The notes below the pieces were generated by a model. That model did not search any database and was not told where the DNA came from. It worked only from the letters and a program-made list of their open reading frames with translations. Positions 1-58,415 of a DNA stretch of 59,818 bases are shown here, piece after piece. Each line of letters starts with the position of its first letter. Within the stretch, counting starts at the first letter, position 1. Origin of the DNA: Candidatus Aenigmatarchaeota archaeon. GTDB lineage: Archaea > Aenigmatarchaeota > Aenigmatarchaeia > GW2011-AR5. The stretch spans positions 1 through 59,818 of the forward strand of contig JACPAH010000002.1 in assembly GCA_016180925.1 (NCBI GenBank), given 5' to 3'. A program made the position numbers and the translations under genes.

Positions 1-3
1 CTG

Positions 4-47
4 CGGAAGACAAAGTCTTCCGAGATGCCAAAAAGCTTCGCTTTTTG
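4..47. repeat. two short tandem hairpins (CGGAAGAC-aaa-GTCTTCCG and CAAAAAGC-ttc-GCTTTTTG) joined by AGATGC; member of the window-wide hairpin family
   Basis: inverted repeats read directly; linker and CAAAAG/CTTTTG stem base resemble 15544-15593 and 58316-58362. Confidence 0.5.
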
Positions 48-54
48 AGCATAT

Positions 55-172
55 GTGAAGCAAATAAGCATATCGGGATTCTTTATTTGCTTCACTATAA
101 AGAAAAGTCTTGGTGTCTGCAAAGAGCAAAGCTCTTTGAGACCTCAAAAACCCTTAAAGAGGTTTTTGCAGG
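55..172. repeat. divergent copy of the composite hairpin repeat: long hairpin GTGAAGCAAATAA..TTATTTGCTTCAC, then TCTGCAAAGAGC-aaa-GCTCTTTG, AGACCT, CAAAAACC..GGTTTTTG, CAGG
   Basis: same order of modules as 15497-15593 and 58268-58362; stems differ but remain complementary. Confidence 0.5.
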
Positions 173-193
173 AACCCCAAAGAAATAAATTAA

Positions 194-7887: not shown

Positions 7888-8541
7888 ATGCAGAAAGACG
7901 AGCTTTTCAGGGAACTGCTCCTGCAGGGCGTCCGTGAAGGAGTAATAAACGCCATGAAGAAGGTGCCCAGGGAGGACTTCGTCCTGCCCGAGGACGCCGA
8001 CAAGGCATACTGCAACTACCCCCTTCTTCTCCATGAAGGCCAGACCATATCACAACCATTAACTGTCGCGCTGATGACAGAATGGCTGGACGTAAGAGCG
8101 GGCCACAAAGTGCTTGAGGTCGGCGCCGGAAGCGGCTACCAGGCTGCAATATTATCCGTCCTTGCCGGCCCGGAAGGCGGTGTCGTCACGTGCGAAGTCC
8201 GGAAAAGGCTTTACGAATTCGCAAGAAAGAATCTTGAAAGATACGGAAATGTCAAGGTAGTCCATGCGGACGGCTCGAAAGGCTATGTTGAGAGGAATTC
8301 TTTGACTTCCTCTAACATCTCAAAGGAACTCCGTTCCTTTGCAGATGACGGCAAGTTCGACAGGATAATTCTCACAGCCTCGGCAAAAAAGATGCCTGAA
8401 GCCCTCCTCGGCCACCTGAAGGAAGGCGGCATGGCCGTGCTGCCCGTAGGCGACGAGATGTATCTTGTGGAAAGACGCAACAAAAACAAATTCCTAAAGG
8501 AGATGAAAGGTTACTTCGCTTTCGTGCCGCTCGTGGAATAG
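7888..8541 (+). CDS. pcm: protein-L-isoaspartate O-methyltransferase, carrying a 19-codon repeat-derived insert
   Basis: GQTISQP, VLEVGAGSGYQAA, DRIILTA and VLPVG motifs of the Pcm family. Confidence 0.9.
   Translation: MQKDELFRELLLQGVREGVINAMKKVPREDFVLPEDADKAYCNYPLLLHEGQTISQPLTVALMTEWLDVRAGHKVLEVGAGSGYQAAILSVLAGPEGGVVTCEVRKRLYEFARKNLERYGNVKVVHADGSKGYVERNSLTSSNISKELRSFADDGKFDRIILTASAKKMPEALLGHLKEGGMAVLPVGDEMYLVERRNKNKFLKEMKGYFAFVPLVE
8290..8346. repeat. double-hairpin repeat unit inside pcm (AGAGGAA..TTCCTCT, AACATCT, CAAAGGAAC-tcc-GTTCCTTTG, CAGAT)
   Basis: same unit as the intergenic copies; exactly 57 nt, in frame. Confidence 0.7.
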
Positions 8542-8542
8542 G

Positions 8543-8794
8543 TCACTTATAGATATTCTTCCTGTGACCAATCTCTATGATCAATATCGTCATTATTTCG
8601 TTATTTATGTCTATAATAATCCTGTAATCCCCGACACGAAGCCTGAAATATTTATAACCAGAAAGCTTTTTCACAAAATCATACGGCCTTGTTTTGACCC
8701 TCTCCAAAACGACCAGTATGCGTTCTTGAACACTTCTATCGAGTTTTTTTAATTGGTCTTCTGATTTTGAGGTAAATTGTATCTTATACATCAT
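8543..8794 (-). CDS. RelE/ParE-family type II toxin
   Basis: F.A..QLKKLD...RI...L...P......KL.G....YRLRVGDYRII..I pattern; 4-nt overlap with the upstream small gene. Confidence 0.8.
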   Translation of the reverse strand: MMYKIQFTSKSEDQLKKLDRSVQERILVVLERVKTRPYDFVKKLSGYKYFRLRVGDYRIIIDINNEIMTILIIEIGHRKNIYK

Positions 8795-9009
8795 AAGCCG
8801 AGTTCCTTCTTTATTTGTTCAAGGGATTTTGTTTTACCTTCTTTGGCCTGTTTTTCTGAATCTAGTATGTTTCTTTTTGTCTCTTCGGAAAGCTCCATAG
8901 AATCCTCTATCAAGTCCCATATCACCTCTTCATAGCTTTCGTTTTCGTATAGCTTTCTTTTCTTCAGGCTCTGCTGAAGATTTTCACTTATTTGTATAGA
9001 CGTTACCAT
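8791..9009 (-). CDS. putative antitoxin of the RelE-family toxin
   Basis: small acidic protein overlapping the toxin start; paralogous to 24334..24510 (..SYEEVIWDLI.. versus ..TYDDIIRNMM..). Confidence 0.6.
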   Translation of the reverse strand: MVTSIQISENLQQSLKKRKLYENESYEEVIWDLIEDSMELSEETKRNILDSEKQAKEGKTKSLEQIKKELGL

Positions 9010-15460: not shown

Positions 15461-15496
15461 GAATATAACAATGGATTTCAGGTTTTAATAATTATA

Positions 15497-15640
15497 GTGA
15501 AACCAGAAAAGAATCCGAACATGAATTCTGGTTTCACATATCTGCAGAAAGCATAGCTTTCTGACATCTCAAAAGACTCTGTCTTTTGCAGATAGTGCAC
15601 AAGGAAAATAATATCTTATTTCTTTCCTTGTAGCACTATA
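15497..15640. repeat. composite hairpin repeat, copy B: GTGAAACCAGAA..TTCTGGTTTCAC, CAGAAAGC-ata-GCTTTCTG, ACATCT, CAAAAGAC-tct-GTCTTTTG, CAGAT, GTGCACAAGGAAA..TTTCCTTGTAGCAC
   Basis: near-identical by eye to 58268-58415 over about 145 nt; differences inside the stems are largely compensated. Confidence 0.75.
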
Positions 15641-15687
15641 GATGCGACACGACAGTAAAACCCGAACGACATAAATCTTGAAGTCTA

Positions 15688-16536: not shown

Positions 16537-17718
16537 TCATTTCCTTAACCATAAAAGGCTTTCCCTCAATGTGCCCACCTTCTCGCTCCTGTTCTCCAGC
16601 GCGAACCTCTTGTTGAGCACGATTATCTTTTCCAGGGAAAACCCGAGCTGCTCCGCCATATACGCAAGGACGACGTCGCTGTCCACGACTCCACTCACGT
16701 CTGTGGAGAACGTGCGTTCTCCAAGATCTCCGGGAAGCCTCCGGCTACCCGGCAGATAGCCGTTGCCGACGACAAGCGCGACATTGGCGCCGGGGACGCA
16801 GACGCGATACAGTTCGCCAAGGACCTTTTCCATGTCCTTGAAATACGATACCGCGGCTTGGGGCAGCCCCAGGAACCCATCCTCCGATATCCTTGAGCCG
16901 ATATAAGAGCGCATTGGAGGCAGTCCCTTCGGGCGTATGAAGAACTCCTCTATCGCATAAACTTTCGTGTAGTCTATGTTGTTCAGGTAGGGGGGAGATG
17001 TTATGATGGAACCCACACTTTCGTCCTCCAGCTCGAGCCTCCTTGCGTCGCACAGTGCGACGCCAGTCCTGCAGTCCCTGAAGCTGAGCCTCTTCACGTC
17101 CTTCGCCATCTTCTTCACGACGTTCCTGAACATTATCCTCAGCGGGGCCGCCTGGCGCTTCCTTATCTTCAGCGAGCCGCCGTCTTTCCTGGCATAGCTG
17201 CACCTGATGGAGGCGTTTATCAGGGCGAGGATGAAGAAGTCCCTGTACTTCTCGTCTTCTATTTTCATTATGTCCCTCATGAGAAATGCGATGTCCTCGA
17301 GGGCGAATTTGCTGAAAGCCCGCTTCATAAGCGGCGGATATTCGGAAGGCAGCTTTTCGAACTTCCTCCTGAACCCGGAATATATCTCCCTTACCGTTGC
17401 CGTGTCGTAGTCCTTCGCCTTGACCGAGGACGCAAAAATCGAGACAGGCAGCACGTCAAGGCCCACGGAGTCTATCCCAAGCTCCCTGCATGCAAGGAGA
17501 GTCGTGCCGGAACCACAGAACGGGTCAAGGACAGGCAGCGAGACGTCATGCTGAAACATGTCCAGTATCTTGAGCACGAGTTCCCTCGAGAAGCCTTCCT
17601 TGTAGTAGAACCAGTTGTATACCGGCGTCTTCTTGTTGGGCACGAACGTCGCAAGCTCCGCCCATTCCAGCTTTTCCTCTATCTTTCCTATAATACTATG
17701 CGCATATTCCTTGAACAT
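16537..17718 (-). CDS. SAM-dependent N6-adenine/N4-cytosine-type methyltransferase (DNA methylase-like), no adjacent endonuclease recognised
   Basis: DPFCGSGTT (motif I) near the N-terminus and TSPPY (motif IV) about 175 aa later. Confidence 0.7.
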   Translation of the reverse strand: MFKEYAHSIIGKIEEKLEWAELATFVPNKKTPVYNWFYYKEGFSRELVLKILDMFQHDVSLPVLDPFCGSGTTLLACRELGIDSVGLDVLPVSIFASSVKAKDYDTATVREIYSGFRRKFEKLPSEYPPLMKRAFSKFALEDIAFLMRDIMKIEDEKYRDFFILALINASIRCSYARKDGGSLKIRKRQAAPLRIMFRNVVKKMAKDVKRLSFRDCRTGVALCDARRLELEDESVGSIITSPPYLNNIDYTKVYAIEEFFIRPKGLPPMRSYIGSRISEDGFLGLPQAAVSYFKDMEKVLGELYRVCVPGANVALVVGNGYLPGSRRLPGDLGERTFSTDVSGVVDSDVVLAYMAEQLGFSLEKIIVLNKRFALENRSEKVGTLRESLLWLRK

Positions 17719-18038: not shown

Positions 18039-18458
18039 ATGGATGGTTCTCTGAAGAGTTCTCATGCTAGGAAAAATTTCTTACTTATTGGGTTGCTCTT
18101 TGCATTCGTCTTCGCGATGGCGGCGCCTTCGCAGGCAGCTTTGATGAATATCACGGTGGTGCAGGAAATAAGAAACCTCAGTTATTATACCATAAGCGAC
18201 CCGGTAAACGCTTCCAATATCACATTTGTCCAGCCTGAACTCAAGATAAATGTCACGGGCAACATAACCACCGTCTATAATTTCACGCTCACCGTTGATG
18301 GTGTCGAGGGACAATCATACAACATCACGAACAACACTGCTGTATATGTTAATATTTCAACCAGGCTTGCCAACGGGACGCACACCGTCTGTCATAAACG
18401 TGAGCGCCGGCACCGGAGCAACCACGAACGCCACCAATACAACGGACACCACGCCTGA
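18039..18458 (+). CDS. N-terminal fragment (signal peptide plus first repeat) of the large surface glycoprotein, in a different frame from the main body
   Basis: signal peptide LLIGLLFAFVFAMAAPSQA; NxS/T-rich repeat like the downstream repeats up to ..ANGTHTV, then nonsense (CHKRERRHR..). Confidence 0.6.
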   Translation: MDGSLKSSHARKNFLLIGLLFAFVFAMAAPSQAALMNITVVQEIRNLSYYTISDPVNASNITFVQPELKINVTGNITTVYNFTLTVDGVEGQSYNITNNTAVYVNISTRLANGTHTVCHKRERRHRSNHERHQYNGHHA

Positions 18459-21219
18459 AATACTGTTCAACCTGACTGACAATGCTGAAACGGACCAGAT
18501 AAACGTCAGCGTATACGTGGGATTCACAGGAGGAACCCTAAGCTATGACGGCAGCAAATTAATCACTAACAATACTATCGGCAGGTTCAATCTCTCGGCA
18601 AGGGCAAATGGCACTTTCCTAGTGAGATTTGAGGCAAATGATTCAGCGCGCAACCTTGCAAACGCCTCCCTGCTTACTATAACTGTCGACGACACAGCGC
18701 CGGTTTTTCAGGCGTTCACAGGCTCCGGCGGCACAGGAGCCACCCTCAATGCCACCAACACGACGGATACGACGCCTGAAGTACTTTTCAACCTCACCGA
18801 CAACGCCGAGACTGACCAGATAAATGTCAGTGTCTATATTGGCGGCACTTATGACAACTCATTTCTCTTCACTAATAACACGATAGGAAGATACAACCTG
18901 TCGGCAAGGGCAAACGGCACTTTCAGCGTTCGATTCGAGGCAAATGATTCCGCAGGAAACCTCGCCAATGCCTCCCTGTTCACAATATATGTTGACGACA
19001 CGAAGCCTTCATTCCAGTCGTTTAACTCGACTACTGGAACTACCAACAATGCCACAAACTTCACTGACACGACACCTGAAATAATAGTTAATTTCACTGA
19101 CGCCGGCGGCAGCTTCACCTTGATAAATGTTAGCCTCTATATCGGCAGCACGTTTGACCATACAGAGCTTCTCGCAAACAACACCCTTGCGAGAATAAAC
19201 GTGACTTCAGCAAGGGCTAACGGGACATTTATCTTAAGGCTGGAATCCAATGATTCTGCGGGCAATTTAGCAAACGCTTCACTGCTCACGATAACAGTTG
19301 ACGACACCAAGCCTGTATTCCAGCCGTTCAATCCTGGCAACAGCACCTCTACGAATGCCACAAATACCACGGATACAACCCCCGAGATAGCAGTCAACCT
19401 GACAGATAACGGCTTCACCACGATAAACGTCAGCGTTTATATTGACAGCACGTTCATGCAGACGTTCCTGTTCACGAATAACACGATAAACAGGGTCAAC
19501 CTTACAGCTAGGGCAAACGGCACGTTCTGGATAAGGTTTGAAGCCAATGACTCTTCAGCGAATCTTGCCAATGCAAGCCTCCTGACAATAACTGTCGACG
19601 ACACGAAGCCCGCATTCAATACATTCGACGCGTCAAATGGCGCCACTGACAATGCCACAAATACCACGGACACGACGCCGGAAATTCTGGTCAACCTGAC
19701 AGACAACGGATTTACCTCGATAAACATCAGCGCTTACATAGACGGCACATTTACCCAGACTTACCTGATAACGAACAACACTATCACGCGCATAAATCTC
19801 TCAATGGCTGGAAACAACACACCTGCAAACGGCACCCATATCGTGCGCTTCGAGGCAAATGACTCCTCCGGGAACCTGGCAAACGCGTCGCTGTTCACGA
19901 TAACCACCGATGCCGAGGCGCCTTACATAACGATATCCTCGCCTGTGAACAACACCAACACGACGGACCTCACCCCGGCATTCCAGTTCACGCTCATTGA
20001 CAATTCGTCTGCGTTCCTCAACGTGCTGAACTGGACGATATGGGTGGACGGCGCAGTCAACGGCCAGACGGGTCTTGCGGCCAACAACACACTGGTTAAC
20101 GTTTCGCTCAATGTGCTTTCAAATGTCACGCATAATATTACTATACAGGTCGGCGACTTCCTCAACAACACGAGAAACCTCACAAGATGGCATGTTTCAA
20201 CAGATGCCGTTGCACCTGTCCTCACGATATCACATTCGCCTACAACTATCTATCAGGGCAATGTGGTCACGGTCTCATGCACCATAGCCGAGAACCTGCT
20301 TACAGTTGCATCCAAGTTGACTGTAACGAAGCCGAACAGCCAGGTCACGACTCTCTCTGGCTGCGGTGCTGAATTCGGCGACACGACTGCCGTCGGCACA
20401 TATACAATCACGCTCACAGCAAATGACACAGCGGGCAATGGCGCCACGTCAACCAAGACATTTGCCGTAAGCGACTCCGGCGGCTCTTCCTCCAGCAGCA
20501 GCGGGGGCGGCGGAAGCAGCAGCGCAGCGGCGTCCACGCCAAGCACGACAGCCTCGAAGACCCTGATAGTCGATTCATTCGTTCCTGACAAGCCGAACGT
20601 GGTCAAGCTTACGAGCGAGAACATAGGCTTCAAGGAAATAAGCGTTGACATCACAAACAAGGTCAATGCCGTCGAGATAAAGGTGGTGAAGACGGACTCA
20701 GCGCCTGCTGAAGTGACAAAGGCTGTTGAAGGCAAAGTCTACCAGTACATAGAAATAAAGCACGACAAGCTGAAGGATGATAATATAAAGAGTGCAAAAG
20801 TCAAGTTCACTGTTACAAACAAATGGGCAACTGACAACGGCGTTGCAAAGGAAAATGTAGTCCTGAAGAGGTTCAAGGAAGGCTCGTGGACGGACATGAA
20901 AACAACGCTTTCAAGCGAAAGCTCAACAGAGACAACTTACGAGGCCGAGCTTCCAGGTCTTTCGGTGTTCGCAATAGGCGAAGCCGTGCCGACTGCCGCA
21001 GCCCAGCAGCCTGCCGAACAGCCTTCACAACAAACTGGACAGCAGCCTGCGCAACAACCTGCAACGCCTTCAGCTCCGGAGCAGCCTTCGGCGCAACAAC
21101 CAACTGCGGCATATTCAAATGAAACGATGTACTACGTTGCCGGCGGCGTCATACTGGTCCTTATAATCGCTTACTTCTGGGTGAAAGCCAGGAAGATAGG
21201 CAAGACTAAGAAGAAATAA
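18295..21219 (+). CDS. large sequon-rich surface glycoprotein (S-layer-like): about 6-7 tandem repeats of about 100 aa, Ser/Gly linker, PGF-pre-PGF-like domain, Q/P-rich stalk, C-terminal TM anchor
   Basis: repeats TNATNTTDTTPE...ARANGTF.VRFEANDS.GNLANASL.TITVDDTKP; ..YEAELPGLSVFAIG; final hydrophobic helix plus KARKIGKTKKK. The true 5' end is probably supplied by 18039..about 18390. Confidence 0.8.
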   Translation: MMVSRDNHTTSRTTLLYMLIFQPGLPTGRTPSVINVSAGTGATTNATNTTDTTPEILFNLTDNAETDQINVSVYVGFTGGTLSYDGSKLITNNTIGRFNLSARANGTFLVRFEANDSARNLANASLLTITVDDTAPVFQAFTGSGGTGATLNATNTTDTTPEVLFNLTDNAETDQINVSVYIGGTYDNSFLFTNNTIGRYNLSARANGTFSVRFEANDSAGNLANASLFTIYVDDTKPSFQSFNSTTGTTNNATNFTDTTPEIIVNFTDAGGSFTLINVSLYIGSTFDHTELLANNTLARINVTSARANGTFILRLESNDSAGNLANASLLTITVDDTKPVFQPFNPGNSTSTNATNTTDTTPEIAVNLTDNGFTTINVSVYIDSTFMQTFLFTNNTINRVNLTARANGTFWIRFEANDSSANLANASLLTITVDDTKPAFNTFDASNGATDNATNTTDTTPEILVNLTDNGFTSINISAYIDGTFTQTYLITNNTITRINLSMAGNNTPANGTHIVRFEANDSSGNLANASLFTITTDAEAPYITISSPVNNTNTTDLTPAFQFTLIDNSSAFLNVLNWTIWVDGAVNGQTGLAANNTLVNVSLNVLSNVTHNITIQVGDFLNNTRNLTRWHVSTDAVAPVLTISHSPTTIYQGNVVTVSCTIAENLLTVASKLTVTKPNSQVTTLSGCGAEFGDTTAVGTYTITLTANDTAGNGATSTKTFAVSDSGGSSSSSSGGGGSSSAAASTPSTTASKTLIVDSFVPDKPNVVKLTSENIGFKEISVDITNKVNAVEIKVVKTDSAPAEVTKAVEGKVYQYIEIKHDKLKDDNIKSAKVKFTVTNKWATDNGVAKENVVLKRFKEGSWTDMKTTLSSESSTETTYEAELPGLSVFAIGEAVPTAAAQQPAEQPSQQTGQQPAQQPATPSAPEQPSAQQPTAAYSNETMYYVAGGVILVLIIAYFWVKARKIGKTKKK

Positions 21220-21281: not shown

Positions 21282-21369
21282 GGGCTGGTAGATCAACTGG
21301 AAGATCGCTTGCATGGCATATCTTGCGAGCCAAGGCAAGAGGCTACGGGTTCGAGTCCCGTCCAGTCCA
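21282..21369 (+). tRNA. tRNA-Ala(GGC) with an intron of about 15 nt (21319-21333) in the anticodon loop
   Basis: manual cloverleaf: acceptor GGGCTGG/CCAGTCC with G3:U70, D arm GATC-AACTGGAA-GATC, anticodon stem CTTGC/GCAAG enclosing 22 nt, variable AGGCT, T arm ACGGG-TTCGAGT-CCCGT, discriminator A; CCA not encoded. Confidence 0.8.
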
Positions 21370-21370
21370 T

Positions 21371-21420
21371 AAGCCCCTTTTCTTTTCAAAAAAGAAAAGG
21401 CCCTTGGGTTCAAAAGAAAA
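21371..21420 (+). repeat. trailer module AAGCCCC-[11-bp hairpin]-GGCCCTTGGGTTCAA.., homologous to the 5' part of the tRNA-Cys intron (58491-58540)
   Basis: by-eye alignment; hairpin arms CCTTTTCTTTT/AAAAGAAAAGG here versus CCTTCTTTCTT/AAGAAAGAAGG there, changed on both arms. Confidence 0.6.
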
Positions 21421-21453
21421 TAATATATTTTAAGAGAAGAGGAGGTTGATAAG

Positions 21454-22137: not shown

Positions 22138-22187
22138 AGAAGTGTATTGCTAGTCAAATAGATAAATATGACGTATTTGGCAGCAAT

Positions 22188-22245
22188 GTACAAAAGACAA
22201 AGCCTTTTGACATGCCAAAGAACTTTCAGTTCTTTGCGCATATGC
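22188..22245. repeat. double hairpin unit (CAAAAG-acaaagc-CTTTTG, ACATGC, CAAAGAAC-tttca-GTTCTTTG, CGCAT)
   Basis: inverted repeats read directly. Confidence 0.55.
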
Positions 22246-22337
22246 TAACCAACGTATTAATGTCTTGAATATTAAGTTGGTTAACTATTTTGCAGGAACA
22301 ATGTTAAATACCCTTCGCCACCTATTCTGTTATGGCA

Positions 22338-22446
22338 ATCTGCAAATGTGCGAAAACCGAAGGATTTCGACATCCCAAAGGAATTCTATTCCTTTGCGGA
22401 AAGCTTCGCTCTTTGAGATCTCAAAGGAGGGACCTCCTTTGAAGAT
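22338..22446. repeat. array of four family hairpins (ATCTGCA.., CGAAAACC-gaa-GGATTTCG, ACATCC, CAAAGGAAT-tct-ATTCCTTTG, .., GAGATCT, CAAAGGAG-ggac-CTCCTTTG, AAGAT)
   Basis: read directly; 22369-22400 is nearly identical to 24983-25014. Confidence 0.6.
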
Positions 22447-22480
22447 ACGGAAACGCCGAAAAAAGAAGAATTATCCCCGG

Positions 22481-23311: not shown

Positions 23312-23416
23312 TTCTTTATATTGTCTGCAATGGCATTATGAATAAATGGCGCTGAGATGATAAAGATGGCGGCAAATGCTATCTTTAATCATTTTGCCGA
23401 ATCTAATAGAAACATG

Positions 23417-23553
23417 GGCAGGTAGCTTAGCCTGGTAGAGCACCTGACTGATATCGCAGAAAGCGCAGCTTTCTGGGAGCTTGGAAAGAAGGAAACACTG
23501 AAGTTCTTTCCCAATCATCAGGAGGTCGAGAGTTCAAATCTCTTCCTGCCCAT
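23417..23553 (+). tRNA. tRNA-Ile(GAU) with a 63-nt anticodon-loop intron (23455-23517)
   Basis: manual cloverleaf: acceptor GGGCAGG/CCTGCCC, D arm GCTT-AGCCTGGTA-GAGC, anticodon stem CCTGA/TCAGG, loop CTGATA+A, variable AGGTC, T arm GAGAG-TTCAAAT-CTCTT, discriminator A. Confidence 0.85.
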
Positions 23554-24333: not shown

Positions 24334-24510
24334 ATGGCAACGACGATAGCGGTAAGCGATGAAACAAAAGAAATGCTTAAAACCCTCGGGACAAAGGACG
24401 AGACATACGACGATATAATCAGGAACATGATGATAGCATATGAAGAATTCCTGAACAGACAGTACAAAAGGCTTGAAGAAAGAAATAAATTCAAAAAGAT
24501 GGTTTTCTAG
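24334..24510 (+). CDS. putative antitoxin (58 aa; below the ORF-track size cut-off)
   Basis: hand translation MATTIAVSDETKEMLKTLGTKDETYDDIIRNMMIAYEEFLNRQYKRLEERNKFKKMVF; the stop abuts the toxin ATG; paralogue of 8791..9009. Confidence 0.55.
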   Translation: MATTIAVSDETKEMLKTLGTKDETYDDIIRNMMIAYEEFLNRQYKRLEERNKFKKMVF

Positions 24511-24774
24511 ATGGATGTATTTCTGCACAATCAGGCAGAAAAATTTCTGAACACTCTTGATAGAAAAATACAACCATCGATAAAAGAGCATCTGAAAACC
24601 CTCTCAAAAGAGCCGTATTCAAAGCTGCTTGACATAAAAAAACTGAAAGGCATGGGCAGAAAACCTGACATTTTTCGGCTTCGTGTCGGGGAATACAGGA
24701 TAATATACTTTATTCAAGGAAATGAAATACTTGTTACCGACATAATCAGAAGAGAAGCCGGATATAATCTGTGA
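24511..24774 (+). CDS. RelE/ParE-family type II toxin (second copy)
   Basis: ..A.KFL..LD......I...L..L...P.....KKL.G....FRLRVGEYRIIY.I pattern, paralogous to 8543..8794. Confidence 0.8.
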   Translation: MDVFLHNQAEKFLNTLDRKIQPSIKEHLKTLSKEPYSKLLDIKKLKGMGRKPDIFRLRVGEYRIIYFIQGNEILVTDIIRREAGYNL

Positions 24775-25024
24775 AAACCGGACTTCGACTTCAAATTCAG
24801 ATTTAAATAGCTTATCACCGAATTAAAGTAAGCTCTCACGTACTCGGAAAGGCATAGTTTTGTCTTTCGCCGCGTTCTACGTACAGGCAATTGACGCCTC
24901 CGGCGCCGGTCTGGTTGGGCGAGGGCCAGTCCTCAGAGAGAACTGGTTCGCTGACAAAGGAATTTCATATTTACTCAAATAACATCCCAAAGGAATAGAA
25001 TTCCTTTGCGGAGAGGAATGGAGA
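24775..25024 (+). promoter_or_regulatory. non-coding leader of about 250 nt upstream of rpl3, with a GC-rich structured core and a terminal family hairpin (24983-25014)
   Basis: no credible ORF; CGCCGCGT..ACGCCTCCGGCG, palindrome CCGGCGCCGG, CCAGT..ACTGG, then ACATCC-CAAAGGAAT-aga-ATTCCTTTG-CGGAGAGG just before the ATG. Confidence 0.4.
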
Positions 25025-27143: not shown

Positions 27144-27830
27144 ATGGGAAAAAATCTAAGGCAGCAGAGGAGAGGGAAGGCGAATCCCAGGTACACGTCG
27201 CCGGGCCACAGGTACATGGGAGACGTGAGCTACAGGAAGTTCTCTCTTGGCGAGGTCGTGGACATAGTCCATGCTCCAGGAAGAAGGTCGCCCCTGGCTG
27301 TCGTTGATTCCGGCGGGCAGAAGTCCCTTTTCCTTGCGACGGACGGGATGCAGGTGGGCCAGAAAATAGGACACGACTTCGCGCAGGGAAACCTGGTCGA
27401 ACTTTCCAATATACCGGAAGGCACGAAGATATGCAATATTGAGCTTAATCCCGGAGACGGCGGAAAATTATGCAGGGCGTCAGGCGCATTCGCGATGCTG
27501 GTGACGAAGGACGGCAACAGGTGCACCCTTCTTATGCCTTCGAAGAAGAAGAAGGTTGTTTCGGCAAGATGCCGCGCCACAGTCGGCACTGTAGCGTCTT
27601 CCGGACGGACAGAGAAGCCCTTCATGAAGGCGGGCACGAAGCACCATGCCATGATGGCTCTCGGAAGAGTGTACCCGCACACGGCCGGGGTGAGCATGAA
27701 CGCGGTGGACCATCCATTCGGCGGCCAGACAAGGCCCGGCAAGGTCAAGACCGTTTCGAGGAACATGCCGCCCGGTAAGAAGGTAGGAAGCATATCTCCT
27801 TCGAGGACGGGAAAGAAGAAGAGGAAGTAA
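27144..27830 (+). CDS. rpl2: 50S ribosomal protein L2 (uL2)
   Basis: ..GGKLCRASGAFA.., MNAVDHPFGG motifs. Confidence 0.93.
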   Translation: MGKNLRQQRRGKANPRYTSPGHRYMGDVSYRKFSLGEVVDIVHAPGRRSPLAVVDSGGQKSLFLATDGMQVGQKIGHDFAQGNLVELSNIPEGTKICNIELNPGDGGKLCRASGAFAMLVTKDGNRCTLLMPSKKKKVVSARCRATVGTVASSGRTEKPFMKAGTKHHAMMALGRVYPHTAGVSMNAVDHPFGGQTRPGKVKTVSRNMPPGKKVGSISPSRTGKKKRK

Positions 27831-27850
27831 AATGGCAAATGAAACAAATT

Positions 27851-27915
27851 TCATTTCAATTGCTCAAAGACCGAAGGTCTTTGGCATCTCAAAAGGGCAA
27901 AGCTCTTTTGCAGAT
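27851..27915. repeat. family double hairpin in the L2-S19 spacer (TCATTTCAATTGCT, CAAAGACC-gaa-GGTCTTTG, GCATCT, CAAAAGGGC-aaa-GCTCTTTTG, CAGAT)
   Basis: read directly; homologous flank-to-flank with 29047-29111. Confidence 0.7.
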
Positions 27916-27947
27916 TCAAAAACAGAAATCTGTGTGGTGTCTTAGAA

Positions 27948-28337
27948 ATGGCAAAGAAATTCATGCTGCGAGGCAAGACGCTTGAGGAGCTCAACGAGAT
28001 GAACCTCGAGGAGCTGTCAAAGCTCTTCACCGCGCGCGAAAGGCGCGCCCTCAAGAGGGGAATGCCGGAAATCCACAAGAAGCTCCTTGAAAAGATACGC
28101 AGCTCAAGGGGCAAGGACAAGCTCATAAGGACGCACGCAAGGGACATGGTAATCCTGCCGGAAATGGTGGGAGCCAAGCTCGGCATCCACAGCGGCGGCG
28201 AGTTCCAGATGGTAATAGTAAACGAGAGCATGATAGGGCACAGGCTCGGCGAGTTCGTGATGACACGAAAGCGCGTCAAGCACTCGTCGCCCGGGCTCGG
28301 AGCAACCAGGTCCAGCAAGTTCGTGCCTCTCAAGTGA
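27948..28337 (+). CDS. rps19: 30S ribosomal protein S19 (uS19)
   Basis: ..RRALKRG...H.KLL.K.R......IRTH.RDM.ILPEMVG..LGIH.G..F..V. Confidence 0.92.
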   Translation: MAKKFMLRGKTLEELNEMNLEELSKLFTARERRALKRGMPEIHKKLLEKIRSSRGKDKLIRTHARDMVILPEMVGAKLGIHSGGEFQMVIVNESMIGHRLGEFVMTRKRVKHSSPGLGATRSSKFVPLK

Positions 28338-28349
28338 TGTGCTCTTAAT

Positions 28350-28580
28350 ATGAACGACGTAAGAATCGAAAGAACCGGAAAGGATTCATTCAGGGTAGGC
28401 GACAGGGAAGTCAGGACGCTGAAAGTAGGCTCGGACATATTTCCCGTGAGGACATATGTCTTTGACATGAAAACAGAGGAGTATCTGGGAGAATTTTACG
28501 GAAGCCCGCTACCGTCATTTCCGGAGCTGGATATGGAGTTCAGAGAAGGCTTGATAAGAGTAGTATACGGAAGAGAGTGA
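28350..28580 (+). CDS. 76-aa protein of unknown function inserted between rps19 and rpl22
   Basis: ORF track; 12-nt and 4-nt spacers to its neighbours; no motif recognised. Confidence 0.5.
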   Translation: MNDVRIERTGKDSFRVGDREVRTLKVGSDIFPVRTYVFDMKTEEYLGEFYGSPLPSFPELDMEFREGLIRVVYGRE

Positions 28581-28584
28581 CAAT

Positions 28585-29031
28585 ATGCCATACACGTTCA
28601 ATCCCGAGGAAAAGCACGCGAAAGCGTACAGCACCCTCCCGATATCGGTCAAGTCGGCCGAGCTGTTGTGCAGGGTGATACGCAAGAAGCCTCTCAGGAG
28701 GGTGAAAAGGCTGCTTTCCGATCTGGAGTCGCGGAGAAGGAGCCTGGGAGGCAAGTACCACTCCAACGCAGTGTCCAACATCAAGAAGCTCGTGGAGAGC
28801 TGCGAAAAGAACGCCGAGTTCCTCGGCCTTGACAACGAGAGGCTCATGGTGCACGCGTCCGCCCACGAAGGCATGAGGATAAGGAGAAGGAGGAGAAAAG
28901 GGAAGTTCGGAAACAGGATGAAGCGGGCCAACATCGAGGTCATGCTGATAGAAAGCGGCAGGAGCGACAGGGTGCCCAGGGAGAAGCTCAAGAAACAGAT
29001 GGAAGCGAAGAAAGAGGATGAGAAGAAATGA
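28585..29031 (+). CDS. rpl22: 50S ribosomal protein L22 (uL22)
   Basis: cluster position and ..ISVKSAELLCRVIRKKPL..V..LL.. pattern. Confidence 0.9.
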   Translation: MPYTFNPEEKHAKAYSTLPISVKSAELLCRVIRKKPLRRVKRLLSDLESRRRSLGGKYHSNAVSNIKKLVESCEKNAEFLGLDNERLMVHASAHEGMRIRRRRRKGKFGNRMKRANIEVMLIESGRSDRVPREKLKKQMEAKKEDEKK

Positions 29032-29046
29032 GAAACGGAATAATAT

Positions 29047-29111
29047 TCCATTTCATTGCCCAGAGAACTCCTGTTCTCTGGCATCTCAAAAGAGACACCT
29101 CTTTTGCAGAT
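29047..29111. repeat. family double hairpin in the L22-S3 spacer (TCCATTTCATTGC, CCAGAGAAC-tcct-GTTCTCTGG, CATCT, CAAAAGAG-acac-CTCTTTTG, CAGAT)
   Basis: read directly; homologous to 27851-27915. Confidence 0.7.
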
Positions 29112-29143
29112 TTCGAAACGAAAGACTCGAAGGTGTTTCAAAA

Positions 29144-29812
29144 ATGAAGGAACGGATATTCATACAGAAAGCGAAGGAGCAGATAGAACTTGAGGAGTTC
29201 ATACGCTCCCAGTTCAGGCAGGCGAAGGTCGGGGACATCGAGATACAGCACACGCCTGTCGTCACCAGGATAGTGCTCTACACCACGACTCCCGGCCTCA
29301 TCATAGGCAGCGGCGGGGAGCGCATAAAGGAAATGGCGGAAACCATAAAGAGCAAATACAAGATAGACAACCCGCAGATAGATGTCCAGAAGATAGAGGA
29401 CGCCGACCTGGACCCGGTGATATCCGCTCAGTCCATAGCAAACCAGATAGAGGGCGGCGTCAACTACAAGAGGCTGGGAAATTATTATCTCGACAGGATA
29501 ATGCAGGCAGGGGCCACTGGATGCGAAATCATAATAACAGGAAAGCTTTCCGGCGAGAGGTCCAGAAGGGAGAGGTTCTACGCCGGATACCTGAAGAAGT
29601 GCGGCGAGCCCGCAAGAAGGGAGGTCATGAAGGGCTTCGCCCTCGCCAACCCCAAACTGGGGAATATAGGGATAACGGTGAAGATAATGACGACGCGCCC
29701 GGACAATATCATGAGCATAAGAGAGCCGCAGCCTCGCAACGAAGAGGCCAGACAACAGGAGAAGACGAAAGATGGCAATACTCAGGATGAAGAAAATAAG
29801 GGAAATGAGTGA
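29144..29812 (+). CDS. rps3: 30S ribosomal protein S3 (uS3)
   Basis: KH-domain GLIIGSGGERIKE and GCEIIITGKLSGERSR motifs; the ORF begins at 29018 but its first 42 codons are the hairpin spacer, so the start is set at MKERIF. Confidence 0.9.
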   Translation: MKERIFIQKAKEQIELEEFIRSQFRQAKVGDIEIQHTPVVTRIVLYTTTPGLIIGSGGERIKEMAETIKSKYKIDNPQIDVQKIEDADLDPVISAQSIANQIEGGVNYKRLGNYYLDRIMQAGATGCEIIITGKLSGERSRRERFYAGYLKKCGEPARREVMKGFALANPKLGNIGITVKIMTTRPDNIMSIREPQPRNEEARQQEKTKDGNTQDEENKGNE

Positions 29813-30972: not shown

Positions 30973-31045
30973 TAGAAATGACAATAAATTTTTCGAATAT
31001 ACAGGATGAAAACATCCTGAAAATACCTGAGAAGGTGCCGGAAGA

Positions 31046-31447
31046 ATGAAAGCGATAACATCGAATATTGTGAAAGGAATACCCCTAGGGTCAAGGCTGG
31101 TATGCGCCGACAATTCCGGAGCAAAGGAGCTCGAGCTGATAGCCGTAAAAGGATACAAGGGAAGGCTGCGAAGGCTCCCGAAGGCCGGGGTGGGCGACGT
31201 CATAATATGCAGCGTCAAGAAGGGCAAGGAAAAGATAAGGAAGACTGTCGTTTATGCCGTCGTAGTAAGGCAGAAAAAGGAGTACATGCGCATGGACGGC
31301 TCGAGGGTGAAATTCGAGGACAACGCGGCGATACTCGTGAACCCCAAGACATTCGAGCCGCAGGGCACTGAAATAAGGACGGTCATAGCGAAGGAGGCAG
31401 TTGAAAGGTTCTCTGCCATAGGGAAGATAGCCAGCGTGGTGCTGTGA
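31046..31447 (+). CDS. rpl14: 50S ribosomal protein L14 (uL14)
   Basis: ..L.CADNSGAKEL..I.V.GY.G...R.P.AGVGD... Confidence 0.93.
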   Translation: MKAITSNIVKGIPLGSRLVCADNSGAKELELIAVKGYKGRLRRLPKAGVGDVIICSVKKGKEKIRKTVVYAVVVRQKKEYMRMDGSRVKFEDNAAILVNPKTFEPQGTEIRTVIAKEAVERFSAIGKIASVVL

Positions 31448-31848: not shown

Positions 31849-31902
31849 AGGTGTTTGAATGGTTCAGCTAAAAATTCAAGACGAAAAGGGTTCCGCTTTA
31901 TG

Positions 31903-32016
31903 TGCAACGGCATTGAAAACCTCTGTCTTTAGACAGAGAATGAAACACAATGCCGTTGACATGACAAAGATGTTAGAAACCGGCATCTTTAGATGCCGGA
32001 GATATAAACATCTTTG
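31903..32016. repeat. enlarged family unit: two long outer stems (CAACGGCATTG/CAATGCCGTTG; CAAAGATGTT/AACATCTTTG), each enclosing an inner hairpin, joined by ACATGA
   Basis: read directly; lies in the 198-nt L24-S4e spacer. Confidence 0.65.
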
Positions 32017-32046
32017 CTCATTTTTAGCTTTGCATGAGGTGCTAGA

Positions 32047-32742
32047 ATGACTCAGCTAAAAAGGCTAAAGGCGCCAAGCTTCTGGCCTGTGGAGAGAAAG
32101 AACAGGAAATACATAGTCCCGCCCGTGCCGGGCGCCCATTCCGTCCAGAACTCCATGCCGCTCGGGGTCGTCCTGAGGGACGTGCTCAAATGCGCAAAGA
32201 CGATGAAGGAGGCAAGATACATACTCAACAGGGGGCTTGTCAGCATAGACGGCGCCAGGAAGAAGGACAAGAACTTCGGCGCCGGCGTCATGGACGTCCT
32301 GAAGGTCGGTGACGACTCTTACAGGATAATACCCGGCAAGGCCGGATTCAGGTTCCAGAAAGTGAGCGGCGGCGAGGCCACGTTCAAGCTCATGAGGGTA
32401 AGGAACAAGAAAACCCTGCGAAAGGGCAGGACGCAGATAAACTTCCATGACGGCAGGAACATGATAGTCAGCAAAGACGAATTCAGGACCGGCGACGTCG
32501 TCGTCTTCGACTTCCAGAAGAAGGAGATAAAGCAAAAAATAAAATTCGAGGAAGGCTCGACCATAGTCGTCATGAAGGGACGCAGCCGCGGGGCCGTCGG
32601 GAAGATAGACGGGATAAAAACAACGAAAGGCTCCAAGCCGAACGAGGTCACGGTGAGCATAGGCTCCGGCAGCATAGTGCTCCCGAAGGATTACGTCTTC
32701 GTAATAGGGCCCGACAAGCCCGTCATCACGATGGGTGAGTAA
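32047..32742 (+). CDS. rps4e: 30S ribosomal protein S4e (eS4)
   Basis: LKRL.AP..WP..RK..K....P.PG.H....S.PL..VLRD.L. Confidence 0.92.
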   Translation: MTQLKRLKAPSFWPVERKNRKYIVPPVPGAHSVQNSMPLGVVLRDVLKCAKTMKEARYILNRGLVSIDGARKKDKNFGAGVMDVLKVGDDSYRIIPGKAGFRFQKVSGGEATFKLMRVRNKKTLRKGRTQINFHDGRNMIVSKDEFRTGDVVVFDFQKKEIKQKIKFEEGSTIVVMKGRSRGAVGKIDGIKTTKGSKPNEVTVSIGSGSIVLPKDYVFVIGPDKPVITMGE

Positions 32743-33418: not shown

Positions 33419-33778
33419 ATGGCAAAGATAATGGTCGTAGAGGATGAGGAACGATATATGGCGCAGATAGCGGAGATAGCGGAACGTGCAGGACACAGCG
33501 TTGTGAAATGTTATTATGGAGGAAGTGCGGCTGATGTTTACGACAGAGAAGTCCCGGATATGGTAGTCACTGATTTTTCATGCGGAATTACAACAGGCGT
33601 TGATGTAACAAGGCAAATAAGAGAAAGAGGAAGTGAAGTTCCTGTTTATATCCAGTCCATGCGGTCTATACCGGGTGGGCTCGTTGCAAGAAGCGGTGCA
33701 AACGGTTTCATCTTAAAGGGTAATCTTGATGCAGAACTCCCCCCTGTAATAAGAAAGCATTTTGGTGGTAGAGAATGA
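33419..33778 (+). CDS. stand-alone CheY-like response-regulator receiver domain
   Basis: KIMVVEDEE acidic pocket, MVVTDFS phospho-acceptor Asp context, ..VYIQSMRS.. Ser/Thr position, ANGFILKG Lys position; ATGA overlap with the rps8 start. Confidence 0.75.
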   Translation: MAKIMVVEDEERYMAQIAEIAERAGHSVVKCYYGGSAADVYDREVPDMVVTDFSCGITTGVDVTRQIRERGSEVPVYIQSMRSIPGGLVARSGANGFILKGNLDAELPPVIRKHFGGRE

Positions 33779-41208: not shown

Positions 41209-41916
41209 TCAGAATAGCCTGACCACAATGAACGCAAAAAGCAGCATGCTTGCGAAGTCGGCGAGCGACGTCGTTATCGGCACGAGGAAGTTGTTCGGGT
41301 CCTCCTTCTTCCTGTATATGTAGATGCCGGCCGCGAGCGATGCCAGGAATATTATTCCAACGAGTATCATGGTGCACAAAACCGAGACAGCCATGACCTT
41401 CAGGAACACTGACGGGTCGAACGGGAAGCCGCCGTAATATGCCATGCCATATGATACCGCCCCGATGTACAGCGACGTTATCAGGGCGACGGCAAGAAGC
41501 GTCGCCATAAGCTTCCTAAGCCCAGGAGATTTCATCACGCCTGCCCTGATGCTTATCTTCCCTGTATAGAGCATGGCAGTGAACTTCGACGAGACTATGG
41601 TGCCGTAATCCCCTATCATGTCGTTCAGTGCCGGGAGCATTATCAGCAGCGGAATTATGGTGACGAGCTTTTCCTTCACGTTCTCAAGGCCCACGCCGCC
41701 TACCGAGCTTATGATGGCCGCTATTATAAGGATTTTCATGCTTTCCTTCATGATGACGGAAGCGATATGTGACCTCGTCCCGTATTCCTTCATGTAGAAG
41801 AGCGTCATGTAGGATATCCTGTGTTTCTTGTGCATTGAATGGATGACAGGGTGGTGCTTATGGCGCTTTATGCCGTGCAGCTTCGCGAATTTCTTGTCAA
41901 TCTTCAAAGGAGGCAC
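41209..41916 (-). CDS. MgtE-type divalent-cation transporter membrane domain protein
   Basis: ..IIPLLIMLPALNDMIGDYGTIVSSKF.. and five TM helices; the GTG start lies inside a repeat hairpin, so the true start may be further downstream. Confidence 0.7.
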   Translation of the reverse strand: MPPLKIDKKFAKLHGIKRHKHHPVIHSMHKKHRISYMTLFYMKEYGTRSHIASVIMKESMKILIIAAIISSVGGVGLENVKEKLVTIIPLLIMLPALNDMIGDYGTIVSSKFTAMLYTGKISIRAGVMKSPGLRKLMATLLAVALITSLYIGAVSYGMAYYGGFPFDPSVFLKVMAVSVLCTMILVGIIFLASLAAGIYIYRKKEDPNNFLVPITTSLADFASMLLFAFIVVRLF

Positions 41917-41954
41917 CTCCTTTGATATCTCAAAAAACTTCGTTCTTTGCAGAG
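41903..41954. repeat. family double hairpin between the two MgtE-domain genes (CAAAGGAG-gcac-CTCCTTTG, ATATCT, CAAAAAAC-ttc-GTTCTTTG, CAGAG)
   Basis: read directly; reads as the same consensus on either strand. Confidence 0.65.
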
Positions 41955-41956
41955 CT

Positions 41957-42487
41957 TCATGCGACCACCACTATTGCTATCATGAACGACACGACGCTCA
42001 TGACGTCTCCCAGGGTAGTTATATAGGGCCCCATGATGTTGTTCGGGTCGTGCCCTTTCCTGAACACCCAGAACGTCGTATACACTGTCAACGGCGCCAT
42101 GAGTATCGAAACCATGCCTGCGATGACTGAAATGAAAATTATCTTCATATTTTCAATCCCGAAGAACCAGCTGCTGGCGAGATAGGCGAAGATGCCCAGT
42201 ATGACGCTTGATATCATTATAAGGGAAGCCGTGGCCAGCATGTTGCTCTTGGCCGTCCTGTCGTTCATCTTCGGCCTGACGACACCAAGGAAAAGGCCTG
42301 AGCTGAGGCGTGCCGCCATGGAGCCGCCAAGGCTGCCGCGCATCTCGAGGAAGCCCGGTATAAGTATGAACAGGCCTGGTATGAGATATATCTGGTTTGT
42401 CATGGAAGCGAGAACCACGCCGGCGAGCAGCCCGCCCGACACCGATATGAGCTCCACGGCGAGGATTTCCCTGAAGTCATTTCCCAT
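41957..42487 (-). CDS. MgtE-type divalent-cation transporter membrane domain protein
   Basis: ..LIPGFLEMRGSLGGSMAARLSSGL..; start moved to MGNDFREIL because the ORF's 5' extension runs into the tRNA-Gly gene. Confidence 0.75.
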   Translation of the reverse strand: MGNDFREILAVELISVSGGLLAGVVLASMTNQIYLIPGLFILIPGFLEMRGSLGGSMAARLSSGLFLGVVRPKMNDRTAKSNMLATASLIMISSVILGIFAYLASSWFFGIENMKIIFISVIAGMVSILMAPLTVYTTFWVFRKGHDPNNIMGPYITTLGDVMSVVSFMIAIVVVA

Positions 42488-42553
42488 TATAAGATATTGG
42501 TTTGGGGTTAAAAAAGAGTTTTTTATAAGCTTATACAGCAATTTCTCAATAAA

Positions 42554-42684
42554 GCGCCTGTAGTCTAATGGTAGCTTGACGCTAAAGACGTCGTGCCAGT
42601 AAAGGACCACAGCCTTCCAAGCTGTTGACTGTAGCTAATAATTTGGCTCAGGCAGAAATCCGGGTTCGAATCCCGGCGGGCGCA
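42554..42684 (+). tRNA. tRNA-Gly(UCC) interrupted at three positions (about 42574-42585 D loop/stem, 42591-42608 at position 26/27, about 42626-42654 variable region)
   Basis: manual fold: acceptor GCGCCTG/CGGGCGC, GTCT-AATGGTA-[12 nt]-AGAC, G, [18 nt], ACAGC-CTTCCAA-GCTGT, [about 29 nt], GAAAT, CCGGG-TTCGAAT-CCCGG, discriminator A; TATA-like TTTTTATAAGC 24-34 nt upstream. Confidence 0.55.
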
Positions 42685-58253: not shown

Positions 58254-58267
58254 TTTCGCGATTTATA

Positions 58268-58415
58268 GTGAAGCCAGAAAAGAATCCGGACATGAATTCC
58301 GGTTTCACATATGCTCAAAAGCGAAGCTTTTGGCATCTCAAAAGACTCTGTCTTTTGCAGATAGTGCACAAGGAAAATAAATATATTGTTTCTTTCTTTG
58401 CATGACTATAAATGT
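58268..58415. repeat. composite hairpin repeat, copy C; its 3' part carries the TATA-like ACTATAAATG (58405-58414) about 25 nt upstream of tRNA-Cys
   Basis: near-identical by eye to 15497-15640. Confidence 0.75.

Follow-up and report, generated by a model that had tools for sequence, protein, structure and literature searches.

REP and BIME elements are short palindromes, often paired and present in high copy number, which are mostly extragenic, lie inside operons and are co-transcribed with them, vary between strains and are occasionally intragenic (PMC3733652). REP elements are tagged at one of their ends by a conserved tetranucleotide, GTAG or CGTC, and the Rickettsia palindromic elements (RPE) are found between genes as well as in-frame in open reading frames (ORFs) that are left intact (PMC3733652). 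Here, we describe a family of structured repeats, hereafter termed the double hairpin (DH), in a 59.8 kb stretch of archaeal DNA (the window), where two copies are located in the spacers upstream of the ribosomal protein genes rps19 and rps3. A sequence-only reading of this stretch had interpreted both spacers as duplicated or inserted structured elements rather than as the result of drift, and the compensatory changes that maintain their pairing bear this out. Our analysis indicates that each spacer is probably a nested insertion of a small selfish hairpin-forming repeat, akin to REP, RPE or MITE elements, rather than an element dedicated to the regulation of rps19 or rps3.

The genomes of DPANN archaea are very small and tightly packed and are usually called streamlined. 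In the genome of this type studied here, a palindromic repeat is present approximately every 4 kb, even in the core ribosomal protein operon and in enzymes. If this interpretation holds true, the family would represent an archaeal counterpart to the bacterial REP and RPE. It would likewise show that translationally coupled operons can be invaded without being broken, the coupling being relayed by an ORF that bridges the insertion, and it would point to a hairpin-recognising activity to be found. The main interest of the locus lies in this bridge-ORF relay together with in-frame palindromic repeats in a DPANN archaeon. The literature searched contained no description of such repeats in Aenigmatarchaeota.

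Two homologous spacers in a ribosomal protein operon

The host is an archaeon, as indicated by three tRNA genes with introns and by its nearest relatives, which are metagenome-assembled genomes of Aenigmatarchaeota (DPANN). In the following, the labels L001 to L178 denote related loci, and X7/X8 the runs holding a further strain. Pfam searches revealed a plus-strand ribosomal protein cluster in the order L3-L4-L23-L2-S19-orf76-L22-S3-L29-SUI1-p29-S17-L14-L24-S4e-L5-S14, in which L2 (27144-27830), S19 (27948-28337), L22 (28585-29031) and S3 (29144-29812) flank the two spacers. Most junctions in this cluster overlap or comprise at most 12 nt, whereas the L2-S19 and L22-S3 junctions measure 117 and 112 nt, respectively. 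The sequence-only reading had regarded the operon as otherwise compact. This applies to most junctions, but not to S17-L14 (73 nt) and L24-S4e (198 nt), since hairpin insertions are present there too.

As proposed from the letters alone, the spacers upstream of S19 and S3 align from end to end, with a column identity of 82% over the full length; every motif listed at that time is found in both, and both fold as predicted. The folding z-scores of the whole spacers are -3.7 (L2-S19) and -3.5 (L22-S3). The respective 54-nt DH cores reach -25.0 and -26.6 kcal/mol with z-scores of -5.0 and -6.5, and none of 200 shuffled sequences folded as well. In addition, a covariance model derived from related copies scores each spacer with 68 bits (E ~2e-13). 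Hairpin 1 had been described as completely different in sequence but still paired. The pairing is indeed retained, but the difference is smaller than stated, as just two of the eight stem pairs and the loop differ between the spacers, and both stem changes are compensated (A-T to G-C and C-G to A-T). In the L22-S3 copy, the hairpin-1 loop reads TCCT in the window (29069-29072) and AGGG, nearly the reverse complement, in L001 (5926-5929), which suggests that the loop may have been flipped through recombination between the arms.

Alignment and folding divide the L2-S19 spacer (27831-27947, plus strand, as are all features of both spacers) into a hairpin A, the DH, a small hairpin C and a Shine-Dalgarno (SD) site. 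At its left edge lies one copy (27830-27839) of the 10-nt direct repeat AAATGGCAAA, the duplicated S19 start region, with the right copy at positions 27946-27955; an S19-start duplication of this type is present in L001 and L178 as well. Hairpin A (27837-27856, AAATGAAA-CAAA-TTTCATTT) is part of a basal module common to L001, L178 and the X7/X8 strain. The 54-nt DH core (27862-27915), delimited by the covariance model and by folding, is the segment absent from L001. It consists of hairpin 1 (27862-27885), with a GC foot, a bulged T and the arms CAAAGACC/GGTCTTTG, and hairpin 2 (27886-27915), with an ATCT/AGAT foot, a bulged C and the arms CAAAAGGGC/GCTCTTTTG. A GGTG motif (27936-27939), read from the sequence as an SD core, is located 8 nt 5' of the S19 ATG, and the same motif precedes S3 and further genes. 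The L22-S3 spacer (29032-29143) shows the matching architecture. Its 54-nt DH core (29058-29111; covariance model and folding) comprises hairpin 1 (29058-29082) and hairpin 2 (29083-29111), and is followed by a segment (29112-29135) in which folding places hairpin C (TTCGA..TCGAA), ending with the GGTG SD core at positions 29132-29135.

Neither spacer contains a TATA-like box of the kind sited approximately 30 nt before the tRNA genes. A scan for bacterial promoters and terminators returned nothing at the elements, and Rfam searches at gathering and relaxed thresholds yielded the three tRNAs and chance matches only, with no match for the spacers or the DH. An intrinsic terminator was rejected, as no T-run or terminator-like site follows the hairpins of either DH on the plus strand, and copies are found upstream of essential genes that lack a promoter-like TATA. 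An archaeal bulge-helix-bulge intron was likewise rejected; the DH folds with single-nucleotide bulges only, and the copies in coding sequences evolve by indels of three amino acids, so they are translated.

A repeat family with turnover between relatives

Repeat and hairpin scans revealed the arrangement of a hairpin (CAAAG-top-loop-top-CTTTG), a CATCTC linker and a GCAGAT tail across the whole window, and the hairpin-2 pattern occurs five times as compared to 0.00 expected occurrences. The covariance model detects approximately 16 DH sites in 59.8 kb, i.e. one per 3.7 kb, which are mostly intergenic and occur in both orientations relative to genes and transcription. A pattern scan of metagenome contigs yielded 120 loci, which were filtered by stem length and the upstream hairpin. 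About 23 are true copies with a paired stem and the conserved upstream hairpin 1, which lies outside the query; the other ~97 were discarded as chance matches without a paired stem. The contigs hosting true copies have a GC content of 31-53%. The consensus of these copies reads TTGCTCAGAAAGC-GAA-GCTTTCTGGCATCTCAAAGAGC-TTT-GCTCTTTGCAGATTT.

In the DH, two bulged hairpins adjoin each other; their feet are conserved, and their tops vary but pair perfectly, giving the consensus TGCTCARAR..YTYTGGCATCTCAAAR..YTTTGCAGAT. The foot of hairpin 1 measures 2 bp, and one base is bulged on its 5' side; hairpin 2 has the ATCT/AGAT foot and a bulged C on the 3' side. The tests for covariation, like the covariance model, rest on an alignment of 26 sequences, in which 97% of the cells are paired, almost throughout by Watson-Crick pairs (559, versus two G-T mismatches). 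In hairpin 1, which was not used for sequence selection, six of the nine pairs show compensatory changes; the foot pair 11-39 is C-G in 20 sequences and U-A in six. None of 500 shuffles matched the observed percentage of paired cells or the covariation score, and no slid register came near. The asymmetry between G-T and A-C mismatches (2 versus 4) was considered as an indicator of the RNA strand and proved uninformative.

This mode of pairing bears on the idea that the palindromes serve the host at the level of DNA, a chromosomal protein with a part in nucleoid organisation, topology or recombination using them as binding sites or cruciforms, comparable to BIME/REP with gyrase or IHF. Pairing that is nearly purely Watson-Crick and independent of orientation, the conserved foot sequences and the density of one site per 3.7 kb would fit such a role. 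However, the DH is patchy among the Aenigmatarchaeota loci, many of which have none in ~12 kb, and variable inner stems that keep their pairing are unexpected for a site bound as duplex. Moreover, we know of no candidate protein, and we thus regard this explanation as quite improbable.

By the covariance model, DH copies are present in the Aenigmatarchaeota loci L001, L002, L004, L006, L008, L013, L165, L173, L174 and L178. The non-Aenigmatarchaeota loci L028-L044 contained none except for one marginal match in L034 (25.7 bits, E 0.007), and none of five pattern matches in viral contigs had a true hairpin pair.

The comparison of the junctions in related genomes showed that the DH is absent from the matching sites in close relatives, as the sequence-only reading had foreseen for the case of MITE insertions. 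In L001, which shares ~89% nucleotide identity, the L2-S19 spacer measures 63 nt and equals that of the window minus exactly the 54-nt DH. The edges of this indel coincide with the feet of the hairpins, with an ambiguity of 1 nt and without target duplication. The L2-S19 spacer of L178 (S19 81% identical) likewise lacks the DH. At the L22-S3 junction, L001 carries the full element with 91% identity, whereas L22 and S3 overlap by 4 nt without any spacer in L002, L177 and L178. In the X7/X8 strain, with flanks 93-96% identical, 41 nt replace 95 nt of the window at this junction, i.e. 54 nt fewer. Its 58-nt L22-S3 spacer, of which 41 nt were recovered from loose ends, aligns without gaps to the L2-S19 spacer of L001, indicating that a basal module of ~60 nt exists at both junctions. 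A clean deletion of 95 nt was therefore rejected for this joint, since the remaining 41 nt form the basal module without the DH. In the window, the two copies of the basal module carry the DH at an identical internal position. Contigs from six samples agree fully in both spacers, which are hence fixed in the population.

Further junctions show comparable differences. At S19-orf76, L176 (S19 95% identical) contains a DH-like pair of 61 nt, of which the 12-nt spacer of the window (28338-28349, TGTGCTCTTAAT) is the 5' remnant. The possibility that fold-back copying of the target flank gave rise to the hairpin arms was rejected at this junction, as the 12 nt are a deletion footprint and not host sequence. 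The window lacks the AGTGATAAAA SD region at this site, which L001 and L176 retain. A DH is present at L23-L2 in L006, L008 and L173 and at L2-S19 in L013, in some cases in the opposite orientation. At L2-S19, insertions of 266-820 nt, apparently with ORFs, are found in L004, L008, L009, L011, L012, L018 and L023, and from its sequence this junction appears to be a recurrent insertion hot spot. L001 carries a 257-nt insert with an apparent ORF at L23-L2.

This distribution largely refutes an operon-specific translational operator, in which the spacers would mimic an rRNA site and a ribosomal protein would autoregulate S19 and S3. Two homologous structured elements directly 5' of two ribosomal protein genes would fit such a mechanism. 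However, the element is also located beside unrelated genes and within ORFs, it is absent at L2-S19 in L001 and L178 and at L22-S3 in L002, L177 and L178, and no Rfam ribosomal leader matches, so we consider an operator scarcely credible. More generally, a ribosomal autoregulatory leader was rejected, as the vast majority of the examined related loci either lack the DH or differ at the junction, the family is genome-wide and Rfam provides no match. The sequence-only reading had seen in the spacers a functional RNA element, i.e. a processing site, operator, promoter or terminator. Approximately 16 sites throughout the window in both orientations, the absence at the junctions of relatives, the copies inside genes and the lack of a T-run and of an Rfam match all argue against this suggestion, and the DH presumably has no regulatory role in the operon.

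A more general variant would be that the family has been co-opted as RNA punctuation, protecting upstream mRNA from 3'-5' decay or providing processing or pause sites that would adjust the relative expression of genes in an operon, in the manner of bacterial REP and Correia elements. In favour of this variant, the hairpins have a high stability, and most copies lie between genes, with many found directly after stop codons or at the 3' ends of genes; the feet are conserved in deep lineages, the covariation is strong, and both spacers are fixed in the population. On the other hand, the copies occur in both orientations relative to transcription and at positions that differ between close relatives. 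Some lie in ORFs that are intact and look essential, and cutting or terminating the transcript there would do harm. The hairpins are not followed by a T-run, and G-U pairs are almost lacking, unlike in typical selected RNA helices. Taken together, we consider punctuation as the general function of the family unlikely, though a secondary role in RNA, such as segment stabilisation or pausing, is possible.

Bridge ORFs and in-frame copies

Both spacers are spanned by an open frame. The L2-S19 bridge ORF (27832-27945, plus strand) comprises 37 codons. It starts with an ATG 1 nt downstream of the L2 stop codon (TAA), within the 10-nt AAATGGCAAA duplicate, and ends with a TAG 2 nt before the S19 ATG. 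In L001 and L178 it comprises 19 codons, to which the 18 codons of the DH add up to 37. The L22-S3 bridge ORF (29028-29147, plus strand) comprises 39 codons, and its ATG and TGA overlap the L22 stop codon and the S3 ATG, respectively, each as ATGA; the X7/X8 strain, with a spacer shorter by 54 nt, retains 21 codons. Thus, the DH contributes exactly 18 stop-free codons to either ORF. The other two hairpin insertions of the operon are bridged as well. At S17-L14, a hairpin insertion (30973-31045, plus strand; +63 nt relative to L001 and L002) contains a 23-codon bridge ORF (30978-31049). At L24-S4e, a nested-hairpin insertion (31849-32046, plus strand) makes the junction ~164 nt longer, duplicates the S4e start (~27 nt) and contains a 63-codon bridge ORF (31859-32050); the different L24-S4e insertion of L002 is bridged, too.

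In total, all nine hairpin-bearing spacers examined in the operon, four in the window and five in relatives, contain a bridge ORF. With shuffled interiors, the four frames of the window would be open by chance with probabilities of 0.06 (L2-S19), 0.08 (L22-S3), 0.15 and 0.01, the product being ~8e-6. The operon insertions are not neutral in form, as each keeps an open bridging frame. Family-wide, the lengths of the DH (50-62 nt) are not enriched for multiples of three (8/26), and a design of the element to be in-frame was rejected on this ground. This lack of bias indicates that the in-frame copies are a selected subset.

The bridge ORFs could alternatively be real genes for micro-proteins, the spacers then being short coding genes. 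They are free of internal stops, their start and stop positions suit translational coupling, a gene caller predicts a 39-aa product, and the S19-side and S3-side peptides are alike (MANETSFISISKTKVVKVF and MRNEMSFIYISETEIQQVFQK). However, this similarity is explained by shared nucleotide ancestry, an insertion of 18 codons is tolerated in the middle of both ORFs, and the peptides diverge widely across the junctions (S17-L14, L24-S4e) and between relatives, which makes this alternative very improbable. As a practical point for annotation, the 'hypothetical proteins' of 37-63 codons called in these spacers stem from repeat insertion and are not genuine genes.

The geometry of the bridge ORFs, with ATGA overlaps or nearly adjacent starts and stops, resembles termination-reinitiation coupling in the ribosomal protein operons of prokaryotes, which relatives use directly at L22/S3, S17/L14 and L24/S4e. 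In contrast, the coupling here would be relayed through an inserted hairpin-rich mini-ORF. To our knowledge, there is no described precedent for a relay of this kind, and none turned up in the literature searched.

In addition, the DH is found within genes. In the protein-L-isoaspartate methyltransferase (PCMT) gene (7888-8541), the covariance model identifies an in-frame copy of 20 codons (8287-8346, plus strand), which coincides exactly with a 20-residue insert that is absent from solved PCMT structures (PDB) and from the closest homologues (89% and 82% identical). A nearly identical insert is present in a 69%-identical homologue in the L002 genome; the two inserts differ at three positions in 60 nt, and one of these changes is compensated in a stem, while the host genes share only 68%. 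Compared with positions 3474-3541 of L165, the insert is ~95% identical, against 68% for the PCMT genes, and the closer relatives L166 and L167 have neither insert nor footprint. Such near identity between two lineages may point to re-insertion at a specific site or to patch transfer. The overall pattern would be compatible with separate gains at a specific site, with patch transfer or with repeated clean loss.

A second intragenic copy, detected with the same model, is located antisense to its host and contributes 18 in-frame codons (16695-16759, plus strand) to a DNA methyltransferase gene (16537-17718, minus strand). It is absent from the two closest homologues, and homologues down to 54% identity contain decayed versions with indels of three residues. 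These indels and the distant decayed copies indicate that the methyltransferase insert is translated, old and repeatedly lost. Taken together, the intragenic copies speak against strong termination or cleavage at the DH, and the corresponding loops of 18-20 residues in PCMT and the methyltransferase should be annotated as products of repeat insertion and not as domains.

Possible origin and further copies of the repeat

The insertions probably arose in two layers. A basal insertion of ~50-60 nt entered at the start of the downstream gene and duplicated the start region (AAATGGCAAA in the case of S19). It brings its own GGTG ribosome-binding site near the 3' end, 8 nt before each true start, and leaves a short ORF reaching from the old start position beside the upstream stop codon to, or next to, the true start codon. 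Within this first layer, a 54-nt DH of the Aenigmatarchaeota repeat family was inserted, an element that is present or absent between close relatives with edges at the hairpin feet and, at L2-S19, without target duplication. A ribosome leaving L2 or L22 may re-initiate, read through the melting hairpins and terminate at the start of S19 or S3, with the GGTG site of the basal module possibly aiding the relay of coupling via the bridge ORF. Insertions of this kind would persist because they are translationally transparent, and the same logic covers the in-frame copies in PCMT and the methyltransferase; in translated contexts, a DH would survive only if the frame stays open. The candidate mobilising enzyme would be structure-specific, act on DNA hairpins and recognise the conserved feet.

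That the DH is a selfish element with gains and losses over short timescales is suggested by its multiple copies, patchy distribution, occurrence in both orientations, near-pure Watson-Crick pairing, indels at the feet, nesting and copies inside genes. As to nesting, a CCTTTCTT..AAGAAAGG hairpin holds a DH in its loop in L111 and L147, and hairpins lie inside hairpin loops at L24-S4e. Several observations weigh against this interpretation. No transposase was found among the ORFs of the window that were scanned, and the IS200/IS605 TnpA of L173 is flanked by unrelated GC-rich end hairpins. The stem tops are very diverse within one genome, which is unusual for recently transposed MITEs, and the feet are conserved over deep lineages; the strong covariation could equally reflect a host function. 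The target duplications of the basal insertions vary from ~7 to 27 nt (~7, 10 and 27), which does not fit a classical transposase. Finally, the joint probability for the four bridge frames is somewhat overstated because the L2-S19 and L22-S3 bridge ORFs are homologous.

Among known elements, REP/BIME/REPIN of Proteobacteria, which are mobilised by RAYT tyrosine transposases, resemble the DH as short imperfect palindromes that come in pairs, in high copy number and at mostly extragenic positions. Nevertheless, GTAG is present in only 1/26 DH copies and CGTC, GACG and CTAC in 0/26, the host of the DH is a DPANN archaeon, its stem tops are far more variable, and its unit always combines two bulged hairpins that differ from each other. 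Among the ORFs of the window that were scanned, there was no RAYT or Y1 transposase. With RPE, the DH shares in-frame copies in intact ORFs, as in PCMT and the DNA methyltransferase, for which homologues without the insert exist. RPE, however, are 100-150 bp long, CGTC-tagged and bacterial; the DH has no tag, shows no sequence similarity to them and lacks any length bias towards multiples of three (8/26).

MITEs such as the Correia elements of Neisseria are, like the DH, small non-autonomous insertions that are strain-variable at orthologous sites, lie within operons and are co-transcribed. The basal module resembles them in its target duplication, and its S3 copy has a weak terminal inverted repeat (TIR) of 5-7 nt (GAAAC..GTTTC). 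By contrast, the DH lacks TIRs of 15-30 bp, its ends sharing just the CAAAG/CTTTG feet, and a ~150-nt composite described below has a TIR of only 7-8 nt. In addition, there is no target-site duplication of the DH at L2-S19, and the duplications of the basal insertions are not of fixed length (~7-27 nt). We know of no parent insertion sequence for the DH. Elements of the IS200/IS605 type (peel-and-paste of single-stranded DNA; PATE-like) likewise insert and excise without target duplication and have bulged hairpins. They differ in that the edges of the DH indels are located at the hairpin feet and not 10-19 nt beyond, and in that the DH has no conserved target tetranucleotide, its left flanks sharing just a preceding T. 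The syntenic relative L173 encodes an IS200/IS605 TnpB (6143-7318) and a separate Y1 TnpA (19478-19909); a link between these and the DH was rejected, as the TnpA ends are unrelated GC-rich hairpins.

Based on these comparisons, we tentatively suggest that Aenigmatarchaeota (DPANN) might carry an undescribed class of structure-defined mobile double hairpins, which would be inserted and excised at their feet with no duplication of the target, in some cases perhaps within the loops of other hairpins, with the help of a foot-recognising enzyme. Only copies that keep the frame open would be retained by selection in tightly coupled operons and coding regions, relay bridge ORFs being the result.

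The remaining copies are distributed over the window. One DH (15536-15595, plus strand; covariance model) is part of a ~150-nt composite (15492-15645), and a duplicate of this composite, found in the repeat scan, is located at 58263-58415, where the covariance model places its DH at 58307-58364. The two composites are 94-96% identical, consist of a long hairpin, the DH and a further hairpin, and are bounded by TTATAGTG..CACTATAA inverted repeats; a related composite is present in L109. Three DH in a row (22182-22243, 22342-22405 and 22405-22448; together 22182-22448, no strand assigned) lie upstream of the NAD kinase gene. Two more (1-56 and 111-177; together 1-177, minus strand) are located downstream of the L37e gene. 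A single family hairpin (24982-25015, plus strand) is found just upstream of the L3 start, where L001 has additional hairpins. Another DH (41896-41956, plus strand) separates tandem MgtE-domain ORFs. This region (41209-42610) comprises two single-domain ORFs of 217 and 235 aa, and a paralogue (53804-55159) is a two-domain protein of 451 aa; the pair may have arisen when one gene was split at the DH, or two genes may be its natural state.

A further conserved cassette consists of a T-rich hairpin GCCCCTTTTCTTTT..AAAAGAAAAGG followed by CCCTTGGGTTCAAAAGAAAATAATAT. It is present in the window (21368-21440 and 58488-58543) and in L004, L005, L008, L012 and L013, and by its sequence resembles a terminator with a BRE/TATA promoter behind it. 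The loops of hairpins of this type often hold DH insertions (L111, L147).

The search of sequencing runs located the window sequence in DNA metagenomes only and in no RNA runs. ARAGORN called no tRNA in the window, because its tRNAs carry introns. In the tRNA regions 23416-23552 and 42554-42684, we observed a tRNA-Ile(GAU) with a 64-nt intron holding a family-like hairpin (CAGAAAGC-GCA-GCTTTCTG) and a second tRNA with two insertions of ~31 nt at non-canonical positions. Between S19 and L22, orf76 (28350-28580) is an unusual additional gene for such a place in an archaeal S10-type cluster. It has no Pfam match and is kept in L001, L002 and L176-L178, with an identity of 70-79% in L001 and L002. 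A gene for a response-regulator receiver domain (33419-33778) lies between S14 and S8 within the ribosomal protein cluster. In L178 (3265-3932), L2 is called as two ORFs of 163 and 59 aa, which may be due to a frameshift or an assembly error. Two ParE-toxin/antitoxin pairs are located at 8543-9009, adjoining PCMT, and at 24334-24774, just upstream of the ribosomal protein operon. Finally, an ORF of 974 aa (18295-21219) consists of tandem repeats of ~100 residues with a period of ~300 nt in at least six copies.

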